From Escherichia coli (GTDB lineage Bacteria; Pseudomonadota; Gammaproteobacteria; Enterobacterales; Enterobacteriaceae): DNA of 64,000 nt. Under the pieces are notes generated by a model, which worked only from the letters and a program-made list of their open reading frames with translations, ran no database searches and had not been told where the DNA came from. The translations under genes and the position numbers were made by a program. Shown in pieces: positions 5,295-63,878 of this stretch (position 1 is its first letter; each line of letters starts with the position of its first letter). Where the stretch lies: NCBI RefSeq assembly GCF_044647545.1, contig NZ_CP172818.1. One strand, written 5' to 3'.

Positions 5295-6602
<1,308 letters not shown>

Positions 6603-6635
6603 TTTACGCAGCATAACGCGCTAAATTCGCACAAA

Positions 6636-6668
6636 GGCCCGTCACCGCCAGGTGGTGGGCTTTTTTTT
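6636..6668 (+). terminator. Rho-independent terminator after tig
   Basis: GC-rich imperfect hairpin (GGCCCGTCACC...GGTGGTGGGC) followed by T8 run. Confidence 0.7.
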
Positions 6669-6739
6669 GTCATGAATTTTGCATGGAACCGTGCGAAAAG
6701 CCTCTTTCGGTGTTAGCGTAACAACAAAAGATTGTTATG

Positions 6740-6769
6740 CTTGAAATATGGTGATGCCGTACCCATAAC
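6740..6769 (+). promoter_or_regulatory. sigma32 (heat-shock) type promoter upstream of clpP
   Basis: CTTGAAA at 6740-6746 and CCCATAAC at 6762-6769, matching sigma32 consensus CTTGAAA / CCCCATnT spacing. Confidence 0.65.
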
Positions 6770-6847
6770 ACAGGGACTAGCTGATAATCCGTCCATAAGG
6801 TTACAATCGGTACAGCAGGTTTTTTCAATTTTATCCAGGAGACGGAA

Positions 6848-7471
6848 ATGTCATACAGCGGCGAACGAGATAACTTTGCACCCCATATGGCGCTGGTGCC
6901 GATGGTCATTGAACAGACCTCACGAGGTGAGCGCTCTTTTGATATCTATTCTCGTCTACTTAAGGAACGCGTCATTTTTCTGACTGGCCAGGTTGAAGAC
7001 CACATGGCTAACCTGATTGTGGCGCAGATGCTGTTCCTGGAAGCAGAAAACCCAGAAAAAGATATCTATCTGTACATTAACTCTCCAGGCGGGGTGATTA
7101 CTGCCGGGATGTCTATCTATGACACCATGCAGTTTATCAAGCCTGATGTCAGCACCATCTGTATGGGCCAGGCGGCCTCGATGGGCGCTTTCTTGCTGAC
7201 TGCAGGGGCAAAAGGTAAACGTTTCTGCCTGCCGAATTCGCGCGTGATGATTCACCAGCCGTTGGGCGGCTACCAGGGCCAGGCGACCGATATCGAAATT
7301 CATGCCCGTGAAATTCTGAAAGTTAAAGGGCGCATGAATGAACTTATGGCGCTTCATACGGGTCAATCATTAGAACAGATTGAACGTGATACCGAGCGCG
7401 ATCGCTTCCTTTCCGCCCCTGAAGCGGTGGAATACGGTCTGGTCGATTCGATTCTGACCCATCGTAATTGA
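6848..7471 (+). CDS. clpP: ATP-dependent Clp protease proteolytic subunit
   Basis: 207 aa ORF recognised as ClpP (catalytic Ser in GQAASMGAF motif). Confidence 0.97.
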
Positions 7472-7596
7472 TGCCAGAGGCGCAACTGTGCCGCTATACT
7501 TATCCAGGGCGGCACAACGCTGTAAGCGGCTTGCGCCTGAGAATGGCATTTGCGTCGTCGTGTGCGGCACAAAGAACAAAGAAGAGGTTTTGACCC

Positions 7597-8871
7597 ATGA
7601 CAGATAAACGCAAAGATGGCTCAGGCAAATTGCTGTATTGCTCTTTTTGCGGCAAAAGCCAGCATGAAGTGCGCAAGCTGATTGCCGGTCCATCCGTGTA
7701 TATCTGCGACGAATGTGTTGATTTATGTAACGACATCATTCGCGAAGAGATTAAAGAAGTTGCACCGCATCGTGAACGCAGTGCGCTACCAACGCCGCAT
7801 GAAATTCGCAACCACCTGGACGATTACGTTATCGGTCAGGAACAGGCGAAAAAAGTGCTGGCGGTCGCGGTATACAACCACTACAAACGTCTGCGCAACG
7901 GAGATACCAGCAATGGCGTCGAGTTGGGCAAAAGTAACATTCTGCTGATCGGTCCGACCGGTTCCGGTAAAACGCTGCTGGCCGAAACGCTGGCGCGCCT
8001 GCTGGACGTTCCGTTCACCATGGCTGACGCAACCACGCTGACCGAAGCCGGTTATGTGGGCGAAGACGTTGAAAACATCATTCAGAAGCTGTTGCAGAAG
8101 TGCGATTACGACGTACAGAAAGCGCAGCGCGGGATTGTCTACATCGATGAAATCGACAAGATTTCTCGTAAGTCAGACAACCCGTCCATTACCCGAGACG
8201 TTTCCGGTGAAGGCGTACAGCAGGCACTGTTAAAACTGATCGAAGGTACGGTAGCTGCTGTTCCGCCGCAAGGTGGGCGTAAACATCCGCAACAGGAATT
8301 CTTGCAGGTTGATACCTCTAAGATCCTGTTTATCTGTGGCGGTGCGTTTGCCGGTCTGGATAAAGTGATTTCCCATCGTGTAGAAACCGGTTCCGGCATT
8401 GGTTTTGGCGCGACGGTAAAAGCGAAGTCCGACAAAGCAAGCGAAGGTGAACTGCTGGCGCAGGTTGAACCGGAAGATCTGATCAAGTTTGGTCTGATCC
8501 CTGAGTTCATTGGTCGTCTGCCGGTTGTCGCAACGTTGAATGAACTGAGCGAAGAAGCTCTGATTCAGATCCTCAAAGAGCCGAAAAACGCCCTGACCAA
8601 GCAGTATCAGGCACTGTTTAATCTGGAAGGCGTGGATCTGGAATTCCGTGACGAGGCGCTGGATGCTATCGCTAAGAAAGCGATGGCGCGTAAAACCGGT
8701 GCCCGTGGCCTGCGTTCCATCGTAGAAGCCGCACTGCTCGATACCATGTACGATCTGCCGTCCATGGAAGACGTCGAAAAAGTGGTTATCGACGAATCGG
8801 TAATTGATGGTCAAAGCAAGCCGTTGCTGATTTATGGCAAGCCGGAAGCGCAACAGGCATCTGGTGAATAA
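7597..8871 (+). CDS. clpX: ATP-dependent Clp protease ATP-binding subunit ClpX
   Basis: 424 aa; N-terminal C4 zinc-binding (CSFCGK...CDEC), Walker A GPTGSGKT. Confidence 0.97.
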
Positions 8872-8901
8872 TTAACCATTCCCATACAATTAGTTAACCA
8901 A

Positions 8902-8934
8902 AAAGGGGGGATTTTATCTCCCCTTTAATTTTTC
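8902..8934 (+). terminator. Rho-independent terminator after clpX
   Basis: AAGGGGGGA...TCCCCTT hairpin followed by T-rich tract. Confidence 0.65.
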
Positions 8935-8948
8935 CTCTATTCTCGGCG

Positions 8949-8976
8949 TTGAATGTGGGGGAAACATCCCCATATA
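8949..8976 (+). promoter_or_regulatory. sigma32 heat-shock promoter of lon
   Basis: GTTGAATG (-35 like) ... CCCCATATA (-10 like) with correct spacing; matches sigma32 consensus. Confidence 0.7.
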
Positions 8977-9058
8977 CTGACGTACATGTTAATAGATGGC
9001 GTGAAGCACAGTCGTGTCATCTGATTACCTGGCGGAAATTAAACTAAGAGAGAGCTCT

Positions 9059-11413
9059 ATGAATCCTGAGCGTTCTGAACGCATTGAAATCCCCGTATTG
9101 CCGCTGCGCGATGTGGTGGTTTATCCGCACATGGTCATCCCCTTATTTGTCGGGCGGGAAAAATCTATCCGTTGTCTGGAAGCGGCGATGGACCATGATA
9201 AAAAAATTATGCTGGTCGCGCAGAAAGAAGCTTCAACGGATGAGCCGGGTGTAAACGATCTTTTCACCGTCGGGACCGTGGCCTCTATATTGCAGATGCT
9301 GAAACTGCCTGACGGCACCGTCAAAGTGCTGGTCGAGGGGTTACAGCGCGCGCGTATTTCTGCGCTCTCTGACAATGGCGAACACTTTTCTGCGAAGGCG
9401 GAGTATCTGGAGTCGCCGACCATTGATGAGCGGGAACAGGAAGTGCTGGTGCGTACTGCAATCAGCCAGTTCGAAGGCTACATCAAGCTGAACAAAAAAA
9501 TTCCACCAGAAGTGCTGACGTCGCTGAATAGCATCGACGATCCGGCGCGTCTGGCGGATACCATTGCTGCACATATGCCGCTGAAACTGGCTGACAAACA
9601 GTCCGTTCTGGAGATGTCCGACGTTAACGAACGTCTGGAATATCTGATGGCAATGATGGAATCGGAAATCGATCTGCTGCAGGTTGAGAAACGCATTCGC
9701 AACCGTGTTAAAAAGCAGATGGAGAAATCCCAGCGTGAGTACTATCTGAACGAGCAAATGAAAGCTATTCAGAAAGAACTCGGTGAAATGGACGACGCGC
9801 CGGACGAAAACGAAGCCCTGAAGCGCAAAATCGACGCGGCGAAAATGCCGAAAGAGGCAAAAGAGAAAGCGGAAGCAGAGTTGCAGAAGCTGAAAATGAT
9901 GTCTCCGATGTCGGCAGAAGCGACCGTAGTGCGTGGTTATATCGACTGGATGGTACAGGTACCGTGGAATGCGCGTAGCAAGGTCAAAAAAGACCTGCGT
10001 CAGGCGCAGGAAATCCTTGATACCGACCATTATGGTCTGGAGCGCGTGAAAGATCGCATCCTTGAGTATCTTGCGGTTCAAAGCCGTGTCAACAAAATCA
10101 AGGGACCGATCCTCTGCCTGGTAGGGCCACCGGGGGTAGGTAAAACGTCCCTGGGGCAGTCCATCGCCAAAGCCACCGGGCGTAAATATGTCCGTATGGC
10201 GCTGGGCGGCGTGCGTGATGAAGCGGAAATCCGTGGTCACCGCCGTACTTACATCGGTTCTATGCCGGGTAAACTGATCCAGAAAATGGCGAAAGTGGGC
10301 GTGAAAAACCCGCTGTTCCTGCTCGATGAGATCGACAAAATGTCTTCTGACATGCGAGGCGATCCGGCTTCCGCACTGCTTGAAGTGCTGGATCCAGAGC
10401 AGAACGTAGCGTTCAGCGACCACTACCTGGAAGTGGATTACGACCTTAGCGACGTGATGTTTGTCGCGACGTCGAACTCCATGAACATTCCGGCACCGCT
10501 GCTGGATCGTATGGAAGTGATTCGCCTCTCCGGTTATACCGAAGATGAAAAACTGAACATCGCCAAACGTCACCTGCTGCCGAAGCAGATTGAACGTAAT
10601 GCACTGAAAAAAGGTGAGCTGACCGTCGACGATAGCGCCATTATCGGCATTATTCGTTACTACACCCGTGAGGCGGGCGTGCGTGGTCTGGAGCGTGAAA
10701 TCTCCAAACTGTGTCGCAAAGCGGTTAAGCAGTTACTGCTCGATAAGTCATTAAAACATATCGAAATTAACGGCGATAACCTGCATGACTATCTCGGTGT
10801 TCAGCGTTTCGACTATGGTCGCGCGGATAACGAAAACCGTGTCGGTCAGGTAACTGGTCTGGCGTGGACGGAAGTGGGCGGTGACTTGCTGACCATTGAA
10901 ACCGCGTGCGTTCCGGGTAAAGGCAAACTGACCTATACCGGATCGCTTGGCGAAGTGATGCAGGAGTCCATTCAGGCGGCGTTAACGGTGGTTCGTGCGC
11001 GTGCGGAAAAACTGGGGATCAACCCTGATTTTTATGAAAAACGCGACATCCACGTCCACGTACCGGAAGGTGCGACGCCGAAAGATGGTCCGAGTGCCGG
11101 TATTGCTATGTGCACCGCGCTGGTTTCTTGCCTGACCGGTAACCCGGTTCGTGCCGATGTGGCAATGACCGGTGAGATCACTCTGCGTGGTCAGGTACTG
11201 CCTATCGGTGGTTTGAAAGAAAAACTACTGGCAGCGCATCGCGGCGGGATTAAAACAGTGTTAATTCCGTTCGAAAATAAACGCGATCTGGAAGAGATTC
11301 CTGACAACGTAATTGCCGATCTGGATATTCATCCTGTGAAACGCATTGAGGAAGTTCTGACTCTGGCGCTGCAAAATGAACCGTCTGGCATGCAGGTTGT
11401 GACTGCAAAATAG
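9059..11413 (+). CDS. lon: Lon protease (ATP-dependent serine protease La)
   Basis: 784 aa from [18 protein letters not shown]; Walker A GPPGVGKT; track ORF starts 15 codons upstream. Confidence 0.95.
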
Positions 11414-11956: not shown

Positions 11957-12085
11957 TTTGTAATCGGTGACTTTCTGCGTCTTGTGGGCTGACAATTGCC
12001 CCCGTTTCTTGTCACAATAGGCCTTTGCGCGCATCGATACGTTGCGTGAGGTACACAGTCATCTACAGCGGAGTGTTGTTACACC

Positions 12086-45050: not shown

Positions 45051-45079
45051 CTTGAAATTATTCTCCCTTGTCCCCATCT
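45051..45079 (+). promoter_or_regulatory. sigma32 heat-shock promoter of htpG
   Basis: CTTGAAA (45051-45057), 14-bp spacer, CCCCATCT (45072-45079); matches sigma32 consensus. Confidence 0.75.
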
Positions 45080-45130
45080 CTCCCTCATCCTGTTTTTAAC
45101 CTTAAAATGGCATTATTGAGGTAGACCTAC

Positions 45131-56930: not shown

Positions 56931-57051
56931 GGTAATTTTCCTGCCTTAAACAAAAAAACGAAGCAAGCATACGCCTGATGGCGGTCCAAAAAAAAGAGTC
57001 ATCTTGCCTAAGAGTATTGGCAGGATGGTGAGATTGAGCGACAATCGAGTT

Positions 57052-57135
57052 ACACCGTCGCTTAAAGTGACGGCATAATAATAAAAAAATGAAATTCCTC
57101 TTTGACGGGCCAATAGCGATATTGGCCATTTTTTT
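57052..57135 (+). ncRNA. chiX: ChiX small regulatory RNA (Hfq-dependent; MicM/SroB)
   Basis: 84 nt ACACCGTCGCTTAAAGTGACGGCATAATAATAAAAAAATGAAATTCCTCTTTGACGGGCCAATAGCGATATTGGCCATTTTTTT, 5' hairpin plus intrinsic terminator; matches ChiX as I recall it; in the ybaK-ybaP gap. Confidence 0.88.
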
Positions 57136-57928
57136 AGCGCAACATCTGCGGCAAATTCCCTTCTCCATACAGGTGTAGTGCACCAACCGCGACCACATAT
57201 CGCCCCGGCGGCATGGCGCGTAATTTGTCCCGCCAGGCGAGATTTCGCTGATGCATCAGCACATCGTACAGCGACTGACTGAACGTATTAGGCAGCGTTA
57301 TTTCATTATTTTGTGGCGGTGTATTCAGCCACCAGCTCATCATTTGTTGCAGCAACCGTGCGTTGGTGTGCCAGTGGGTCAGCGTATCGTCCAGCAGCGC
57401 CAGTCCGTTGTCAGGGAGCTGGAGCAACATGGCAATCTGGTTTTCTGCCCCTTCCAGTTCAATCACGGGTTTATGTTGTTGCTTCGCCGCCTGCAATAGC
57501 TGGTAATCGATACCGTATTCTGCCCGCAGCCCCAGTTTTTGTGCCTGCGTCGCCTGAAGAACCATCGCGATTTGCCACAGCGGTTGGGTAGAAAAGAGTG
57601 AGGTAGAAATGCCCATCTCCTGGCTAATGTGCTGCAGGTTTTGTAATTGCTCCTCGCTAATGCGCTCTTCCAGCGCCTCGCAGGCAGGCAAATTAGCAAA
57701 AGGCGTATCGCTGGTGGAAACATCCGCCTCGACGATCAGCGCATCGGCGTTTTTGAGCTTTTTGAGCAAACGGGTGGGCAGGGGAGCCATATCGTGGCTA
57801 CCCATATGAATACTGCCGAGCAGATGAAAATGGCGATTGCCGGGAAGAGAGATATCGATAGCAGGCCAGGTGTAATGATTACCGCGCAGCGCGGCCCAAA
57901 GCGTTTTTACCCGATACAACAGATCCAT
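57134..57928 (-). CDS. ybaP: TraB/GumN family protein
   Basis: 264 aa ORF recognised as YbaP; its stop codon overlaps the chiX terminator T-tract by 2 nt. Confidence 0.9.
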   Translation of the reverse strand: MDLLYRVKTLWAALRGNHYTWPAIDISLPGNRHFHLLGSIHMGSHDMAPLPTRLLKKLKNADALIVEADVSTSDTPFANLPACEALEERISEEQLQNLQHISQEMGISTSLFSTQPLWQIAMVLQATQAQKLGLRAEYGIDYQLLQAAKQQHKPVIELEGAENQIAMLLQLPDNGLALLDDTLTHWHTNARLLQQMMSWWLNTPPQNNEITLPNTFSQSLYDVLMHQRNLAWRDKLRAMPPGRYVVAVGALHLYGEGNLPQMLR

Positions 57929-58186
57929 ACGACCTCCCTTTGTGAAATATCATGCTAGCGCGCGGGGAGGGATGGCGCAAATGGAGTTGTTGTCGCACTT
58001 GTGCACAGTGCTTGTGTGCATTACAATAATTAAACAATGGACAAGGAGATGAGAATGGAATGGCTCAAAAGAATAATATAAGGAGTTTTCGTGATCCTGC
58101 TGGCTGATTTTTTTTTCCATTCAACCCCACATCAAAAAATCCCTCTAAAATCCATACCACTTATCACAAAAGTGGACATCATTAAT

Positions 58187-58346
58187 CCCCCCCCTTCTCT
58201 CCGTTTTCCCCCCCCCCCGAAACGAAAAAAAAAGTTTTGGAAAAAAAAAGAAATTTCCCCAAAAAAAAAAAAAAAAAAAAAAAAAAATAAAAAAGGGAAA
58301 AAAAAAAAGGAAAAAAAATTTTTTTAAAAAAAAAAAAAAAAAAAAA
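58187..58346. repeat. Homopolymer-rich low-complexity block (C8, C11, A9, A9, A27, A11, A8, T7, A21) upstream of ybaQ
   Basis: Directly visible in the sequence; composition unlike any other part of the window. See findings. Confidence 0.95.
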
Positions 58347-63754: not shown

Positions 63755-63878
63755 CATCTCTCTGTGCGCAGTACTTCCTGTATTATTGTGGTGGCGGTCG
63801 ATATTCGCACTGGCAAAAAAACGTGCTTGAATATTTGTTGAAACCCTTTAACAAAGCACAGGAGGCGTTGCGCGAACG

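Follow-up and report, generated by a model that had tools for sequence, protein, structure and literature searches.

Heat or unfolded protein raises the level and the activity of sigma-32, through relief of its DnaK/DnaJ- and FtsH-mediated inactivation together with more translation of rpoH. Heat-shock promoters of clpP and lon were reportedly described by Kroh and Simon in 1990, by Gayda et al. in 1985 and by Chin et al. in 1988, and the sigma-32 promoters of both genes are said to have been catalogued by Nonaka et al. in 2006. The two promoters are thus already known and have reached the textbooks, and their K-12 sequences are identical to those in the DNA analysed here, with no promoter difference.

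Two forms of the sigma-32 consensus have been published, CTTGAA-N13-17-CCCCATNT and CTTGAAA-13/15 bp-CCCCAT, and reviews place both Lon and ClpP in the sigma-32 regulon. The canonical promoters (those of htpG, dnaK and groE) have the same CTTGAA(A)/CCCCATNT layout with a 13-14-nt spacer as clpP and lon, and share with them an A start 7-8 nt past the -10 element and a short 5' UTR. They differ in that htpG matches at all 14 of 14 positions and has an H-only ChIP signal, whereas clpP and lon are each off at two positions and lie in a region shared with sigma-70-type initiation. In a re-examination of ChIP-chip data, clpP (2.0), lon (2.5) and htpG (2.8) are among the confirmed sigma-32 targets, and an independent second study (Cho et al. 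2014, Table S6) records H as bound at each of them, although the 'found motif' column of that study is permissive and adds little. The main text of a Salmonella RpoH ChIP-exo study makes no mention of these genes. Heat shock reportedly raises lon transcription; in the same study the level of Lon protein was unchanged after rpoH overexpression, and any effect may thus be small at the protein level.

The tig-clpP-clpX-lon region

The window, by which we mean the whole 64-kb stretch of E. coli DNA that was analysed, has the gene order cyoA-ampG-yajG-bolA-tig-clpP-clpX-lon-hupB-ppiD … htpG … copA, as annotated in a matching strain and in K-12. Positions 6600-9100 occur with 100% identity in several complete E. 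coli chromosomes, and have a match in 5,424 of 5,426 genomes. Relative to MG1655 there are 38 differences in this interval, all of them substitutions within the coding sequences of clpP and clpX; the tig-clpP (6603-6847), clpP-clpX and clpX-lon (8872-9058) spacers have zero differences, and TSS and ChIP data from K-12 therefore transfer to the window base for base. The clpPX unit is bracketed by the tig and clpX terminators (Table 1), the first of which is kept across Enterobacterales in an alignment of the tig-clpP spacer (A1) and shields clpP from tig read-through.

Table 1. Positions in the window of the genes, promoter elements, transcription start sites (TSS) and terminators discussed in the text.
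Feature	Position	Strand	Remarks
tig	5304-6602		
tig intrinsic terminator	6633-6664	+	14-pair stem, then T-run
clpP sigma-32 -35 element CTTGAAA	6740-6746	+	7/7 to consensus
Second clpP TSS, upstream	A6748	+	from a sigma-70-type promoter that overlaps the sigma-32 -35 element
clpP sigma-32 -10 element ACCCATAA	6761-6768	+	5/7 to CCCCATNT; 14 nt after CTTGAAA
clpP TSS fitting the sigma-32 promoter	A6776	+	7 nt past the -10 element; 72-nt 5' UTR
clpP coding sequence	6848-7471	+	
sigma-E-like promoter GAACTT-N16-GTCAAT (candidate)	7340-7367	+	inside the clpP coding sequence; TSS G7373 into clpX
clpP-clpX intergenic promoter ATGCCA-N18-TATACT	7471-7507	+	-10 at 7495-7500; TSS G7507
clpX coding sequence	7597-8871	+	
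clpX terminator hairpin	8902-8926	bidirectional	+ 8902-8926, - 8923-8907; T-run after each
lon sigma-32 -35 element GTTGAAT	8948-8954	+	5/7; TTGAA core intact
lon sigma-32 -10 element CCCCATAT	8968-8975	+	7/7; 13 nt after GTTGAAT
lon TSS	8984-8986	+	A8984 in Cho 2014, A8986 in Kim 2012; 73-75-nt 5' UTR
lon coding sequence	9059-11413	+	ATG at 9059
htpG sigma-32 promoter CTTGAAA-N14-CCCCATCT	45051-45079	+	14/14; 52 nt before ATG 45131

Sigma-32 motifs and start sites at clpP and lon

An earlier note, made from the sequence alone, had placed two heat-shock promoters in this cluster, one upstream of clpP and one upstream of lon. Both strings were located where it had put them, and both match the two published consensuses. 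The span given in the note, 6740-8976, opens on the first base of the -35 element of clpP and closes on the final base of the -10 element of lon, the lon strings having been read as GTTGAATG at 8948-8955 and CCCCATATA at 8968-8976. Near clpP the string had been read as CCCATAAC at 6762-6769, and alignment with the consensus octamer gives ACCCATAA at 6761-6768 as the -10 element. The departures from consensus are at two positions of the -10 element in clpP and at two positions of the -35 element in lon, and the spacers that follow the -35 heptamers, 14 nt at clpP and 13 nt at lon, are both inside the published ranges.

The published start sites lie 7-8 nt past these -10 elements, and the inconsistency that would have counted against the promoters is absent. 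The clpP TSS at 455829 of NC_000913.2 (Cho et al. 2014, Table S6; 1303 reads, H among the ChIP sigmas) maps to A6776 of the window. The lon TSS in the same table, 458037 (1744 reads, sigma-32 among the ChIP sigmas), maps to A8984, 8 nt past the -10 element. For lon, Kim et al. 2012 report a TSS at 458039 (A8986) in exponential growth, and an orthologous lon start behind the same CCCCATATACT in Klebsiella pneumoniae.

A second clpP start at 455801, or 6748 in the window, was reported by Kim et al. 2012 and has 3166 reads in Cho et al. 2014; it is stronger than 6776 in the pooled data and is the sole clpP start in the exponential-phase data (Kim 2012). This start is located just beyond the sigma-32 -35 element and must therefore stem from an overlapping upstream promoter. 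A SELEX study of minor sigma factors places the tig/clpP spacer under RpoS only, and is uninformative as regards sigma-32.

We conclude that the motifs upstream of clpP-clpX and lon are native E. coli sigma-32 (RpoH) heat-shock promoters, with a probability of roughly 0.95. The basis for this is the motifs themselves, their rank, placement and conservation, and their match to published TSS and ChIP data, and we infer heat inducibility and sigma-32-dependent initiation from the literature. RNA polymerase containing sigma-32 would recognise CTTGAAA/ACCCATAA at clpP and start at A6776, giving the clpP-clpX mRNA a 72-nt leader, and would recognise GTTGAAT/CCCCATAT at lon and start at A8984, giving a 75-nt leader. 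Accumulation of sigma-32 would then raise transcription of ClpXP and Lon alongside that of chaperones such as HtpG. Both promoters appear to be composite, which could provide basal expression, at clpP through the sigma-70-type start at 6748 and at lon through a sigma-70-like pair of hexamers.

Sigma-70 and sigma-32 at the lon promoter

The -10 element of the lon promoter overlaps a sigma-70-like TATACT at 8973-8978, and a sigma-70 scan identifies TTGAAT-N18-TATACT at 8949-8978 with 9 of 12 matches. An alternative explanation is that the promoter is mainly a sigma-70 promoter whose likeness to sigma-32 promoters is secondary, or else that it is truly dual, with nearly the same start for both forms of polymerase. 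This agrees with the 9/12 match, with the D and H ChIP signals at lon (Cho et al. 2014, Table S6) and with the exponential-phase TSS at 8986, which is 7 nt past TATACT; sigma-32 is equally compatible with these data. The 18-nt spacer, however, is suboptimal for sigma-70, and the pattern of conservation points the other way. When the clpX-lon spacers of 13 genera are aligned (A2), TTGAA (columns T78-A82) and CCC-ATATA are invariant, the fourth C of CCCCATATA is at least 90% conserved, and the spacer between the two blocks varies freely. The CCCC tract, unnecessary for sigma-70, is therefore kept throughout these genera, whereas Arsenophonus (TATAAC) and Colwellia (TATAGA) have lost the final T of TATACT; because the tract is kept and this T is lost in some genera, we take sigma-32 recognition to be the conserved constraint at lon. 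We put the sigma-70 explanation, including its dual form, at somewhat short of an even chance. Dual use of the lon promoter by sigma-70 and sigma-32 is plausible in itself, and it adds to the reading of this site as a sigma-32 promoter without contradicting it.

Conservation of the two promoters

A ClpX scan gave 80 loci, ranging from Enterobacterales to Xanthomonadales, and nearly all have the tig-clpP-clpX-lon synteny. In these, 300 nt were scanned with a matrix independent of the sites in question (described below), using clpX coding sequence of the same length as the control, the 99th percentile of which is 11.3 bits. A lon site above the control was seen in all 15 Enterobacterales and in 47 of 61 other Gammaproteobacteria, and a clpP site in 12 of 14 Enterobacterales and in only 2 of 49 others, both of them Shewanella. 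In the footprints the hexamer blocks are invariant and are separated by a spacer that varies freely; in the tig-clpP spacers of ten Enterobacterales (A1) it is CTTGAAA and the CCC core that are near-invariant.

The predicted site upstream of lon in Shewanella oneidensis (SO1796), ATTGAAAGGGC…CCCCAATAT, is orthologous by position to the lon site of E. coli. Upstream of Shewanella clpP (SO1794) there is a weak candidate, CTTGACTTGA…GCCATTT, present both in the scanned Shewanella loci and in the published S. oneidensis table; it scores about 13 bits as compared to 17-25 bits in Enterobacterales, and is nearer to the start codon.

As judged from these predicted sites, the heat-shock promoter of lon is of ancient origin, and that of clpP is in essence a feature of one order, the Enterobacterales. 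The lon promoter may be ancestral to the Gammaproteobacteria, and ClpXP may have joined the sigma-32 regulon in the Enterobacterales lineage only. The two promoters carry little weight as a discovery, and the gain is a comparative one, with a lon promoter that appears to be Gammaproteobacteria-wide and a clpP promoter that appears to be essentially confined to Enterobacterales.

In Providencia, a candidate CTTGAAA-N12-CCCTAATT is located farther upstream of clpP, beyond the 300 nt scanned.

Overlap of the lon promoter with sraA

The Rfam model of the sRNA family sraA (RF02029) matches the minus strand at full length at 8892-8987, scoring 106.7 bits where the gathering threshold is 56. The match covers the lon promoter in antisense orientation and has its end in the clpX terminator, and the overlap between sraA and the lon promoter is acknowledged in the literature. 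Orthologous matches are present at six Enterobacteriaceae/Yersiniaceae loci and at none beyond these among the loci scanned. No minus-strand promoter for sraA passes the scan, and there is no sraA TSS in either the Cho 2014 or the Kim 2012 data set.

The lon TSS is at 8984-8986 on the plus strand and the Rfam-defined 5' end of sraA at 8987 on the minus strand, and the two starts therefore nearly coincide. The lon promoter and sraA may form a face-to-face pair in which the loading of sigma-32 polymerase (E-sigma-32) onto lon under heat and the transcription of sraA would be mutually exclusive, constituting a small transcriptional-interference switch. Taken jointly with the related reading of an Enterobacterales-only wiring of ClpXP, we consider such an interference pair to be doubtful.

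It could also be that conservation of the clpX-lon spacer is due to the antisense sraA gene and not to the lon promoter, as the Rfam model spans the promoter and matches at the six enterobacterial loci. These matches stop at Enterobacteriaceae and Yersiniaceae, however, and Photorhabdus, Providencia, Aeromonas, Vibrio, Shewanella, Pseudomonas and Xanthomonadales still have the TTGAA…CCCCATAT blocks, such that block conservation is not lost in lineages without sraA. A pair of short blocks separated by a free spacer is moreover promoter-like rather than RNA-like, and an sraA TSS is missing from both data sets. We regard sraA as a very improbable source of the conservation, and attribute it to the lon heat-shock promoter.

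Motif statistics and other sites in the window

A scan for mismatches to CTTGAAA/CCCCATNT finds three sites in the window with at least 12 of 14 matches, where dinucleotide shuffles give 2.14 on average, and the count is not significant; being uninformative, it was therefore replaced by placement statistics and an independent weight matrix. There are three occurrences of TTGAA-N13-16-CCCAT in the 64 kb with both strands considered, exactly at clpP, lon and htpG, where 0.61 occurrences are expected; three or more were seen in 3 of 100 shuffles. All three sites are on the coding strand and precede a start codon by 20-200 nt (79-83 nt for clpP and lon, 52 nt for htpG), a zone that makes up 7.6% of strand-specific positions, and the Poisson probability of this placement is about 6e-4. 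The weight matrix was built from 12 Shewanella oneidensis sites taken from a review, with the orthologues of lon, clpP and htpG excluded. Its top three matches in the 128 kb of the whole window are htpG (24.7 bits), lon (20.3 bits) and clpP (19.4 bits), and the third-best match never exceeded 16.4 bits in 30 shuffles.

The suggestion that the window carries at least three heat-shock promoters also stands, with htpG as the third: its motif is complete, and its TSS at 494300 (Cho et al. 2014, Table S6; H-only ChIP) maps to A45087, 7 nt past the -10 octamer. A very improbable explanation of the clpP and lon sites is that they are chance matches and that the real promoters are elsewhere in the intergenic regions, which would accord with a mismatch count at chance expectation (3 versus 2.14) and with the other clpP TSS at 6748, but ranks 1-3 in the independent matrix scan and the placement probability argue against it, and it is effectively refuted by the TSSs 7-8 nt downstream of the -10 elements, the presence of a sigma-32 ChIP signal and the deep conservation of the motifs. 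The analysis shows that the reader behind the earlier note can pick out promoters for alternative sigma factors in raw sequence with base-level accuracy.

Additional sites were considered within the window. The fourth-best matrix match, at 63826-63853, scores 16.0 bits and is inside the chance range. A fourth heat-shock promoter was considered at ppiD, which is reported to be a heat-shock gene, and was set aside, the best candidate matching at 10 of 14 positions (11981-12007) and being without an H ChIP signal. No motif with at least 10 of 14 matches was found in the sigma-32 ChIP regions at cyoA and ybaK/ybaP.

Starts leading into clpX

Two additional starts are associated with clpX (Table 1). 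The first, TSS 456426 in Cho 2014 (G7373; 827 reads), has H and E ChIP signals and follows the sigma-E-like motif within clpP; on the basis of motif, TSS and ChIP we consider this to be a candidate sigma-E promoter, and the main text of Rhodius 2005 contains no explicit clpX sigma-E promoter. The second, TSS 456560 (G7507), is in the clpP-clpX intergenic region and is present in both Kim 2012 and Cho 2014.

An insertion hot spot within the lon promoter

The sequence GGGGG-AAACAT-CCCC at 8957-8971 (GGGGGAAACATCCCC), comprising parts of the lon spacer and -10 element, is a published hot spot for insertion of IS186. The lon promoter is of practical importance in this respect, as the hot spot is behind the Lon deficiency of the E. 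coli B/BL21 production strains. A contiguous lon promoter region is missing in about 55 of 5,424 complete genomes, and in one of these (L085) an element of the IS421/IS186 family abuts …GGGGGAAACATCCC, with the junction at the 8957-8971 hot spot.

Additional starts upstream of clpP and clpX

The sigma-32 start of clpP is accompanied by a second TSS, A6748, which is the stronger of the two in the pooled published data. Its location just beyond the sigma-32 -35 element implies an overlapping sigma-70-type promoter upstream (6710–6748), with the sequence TATGCT at 6736–6741, inside a block conserved in the Enterobacteriaceae, as its candidate -10 element. A further conserved block is located downstream of the sigma-32 TSS (6778–6815) and contains TACAAT, which looks like a sigma-70 -10 element and reads TAGAAT in Yersinia, Rahnella, Photorhabdus and a Klebsiella sp. 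No TSS downstream of this TACAAT is reported, and the block could alternatively be a leader element.

Transcription features near clpP, clpX and lon (window positions)
Feature	Position	Strand	Remarks
Second clpP TSS	A6748	+	Published TSS data; shortly after the sigma-32 -35 element
Sigma-E-like promoter, GAACTT-N16-GTCAAT	7340–7373 (including TSS)	+	Within the clpP coding sequence
clpP–clpX intergenic promoter, ATGCCA-N18-TATACT	7471–7507	+	TSS G7507
sraA (Rfam RF02029)	8892–8987	-	Full-length match, 106.7 bits

For the sigma-E-like promoter, Cho et al. (2014, Table S6) list 827 reads at TSS G7373 together with ChIP signals for both sigma-32 and sigma-E; such a promoter would yield a clpX transcript that is independent of clpP. 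The promoter of TSS G7507 sits in a GC-rich, hairpin-like repeat.

The lon promoter and leader

The spacer of the lon promoter, GGGGG-N6-CCCC at 8957–8971, is described in the literature as a hot spot for IS186 insertion. Among 5,424 complete genomes of E. coli, about 55 have no contiguous lon promoter region, and in one example (locus L085) we find an IS421/IS186-family element inserted in this region, at 2570–2600 of the locus, with all of the sequence from lon up to entD absent downstream of the insertion. Both E. coli and E. albertii have the GGGGG run in this spacer; Citrobacter and Klebsiella lack it.

The sraA match lies antisense to the clpX terminator and to the whole core of the lon promoter, covering both its -35 and its -10 element as well as the TSS (8984–8986), which almost coincides with the sraA 5' end (8987). 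We found no convincing minus-strand promoter for sraA, and an sraA TSS is absent from both published TSS data sets (Cho et al. 2014; Kim et al. 2012).

Within the lon 5' UTR, the block CTGGCGGAA..TAAACTAAGAGAGAGCTCT (9029–9058) is nearly invariant among Enterobacterales. It is preceded by an inverted repeat of variable sequence, AGATG…CATCT in E. coli and GTGAAAC…GTTTCAC in Yersinia and Rahnella. This pattern points to a conserved leader structure or a translation signal.

Other sigma-32 candidates and htpG

Among the other genes in the window, ppiD has been reported as a heat-shock gene. Its sole candidate promoter is weak, CTTGTGG-N12-CCCCCGTT at 11981–12007, with 10/14 matches to the sigma-32 consensus, and a sigma-32 ChIP signal at ppiD is absent in Cho et al. 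The same data set includes sigma-32 ChIP signals for the TSSs of cyoA and of ybaK/ybaP. The regions upstream of these genes (~1782–2240 for cyoA, 56931–58250 for ybaK/ybaP) contain no motif with at least 10/14 matches. The sigma-32 motif of htpG is the same as in K-12, and one T/A difference from that strain is located at 45085, between the htpG -10 element and the TSS.
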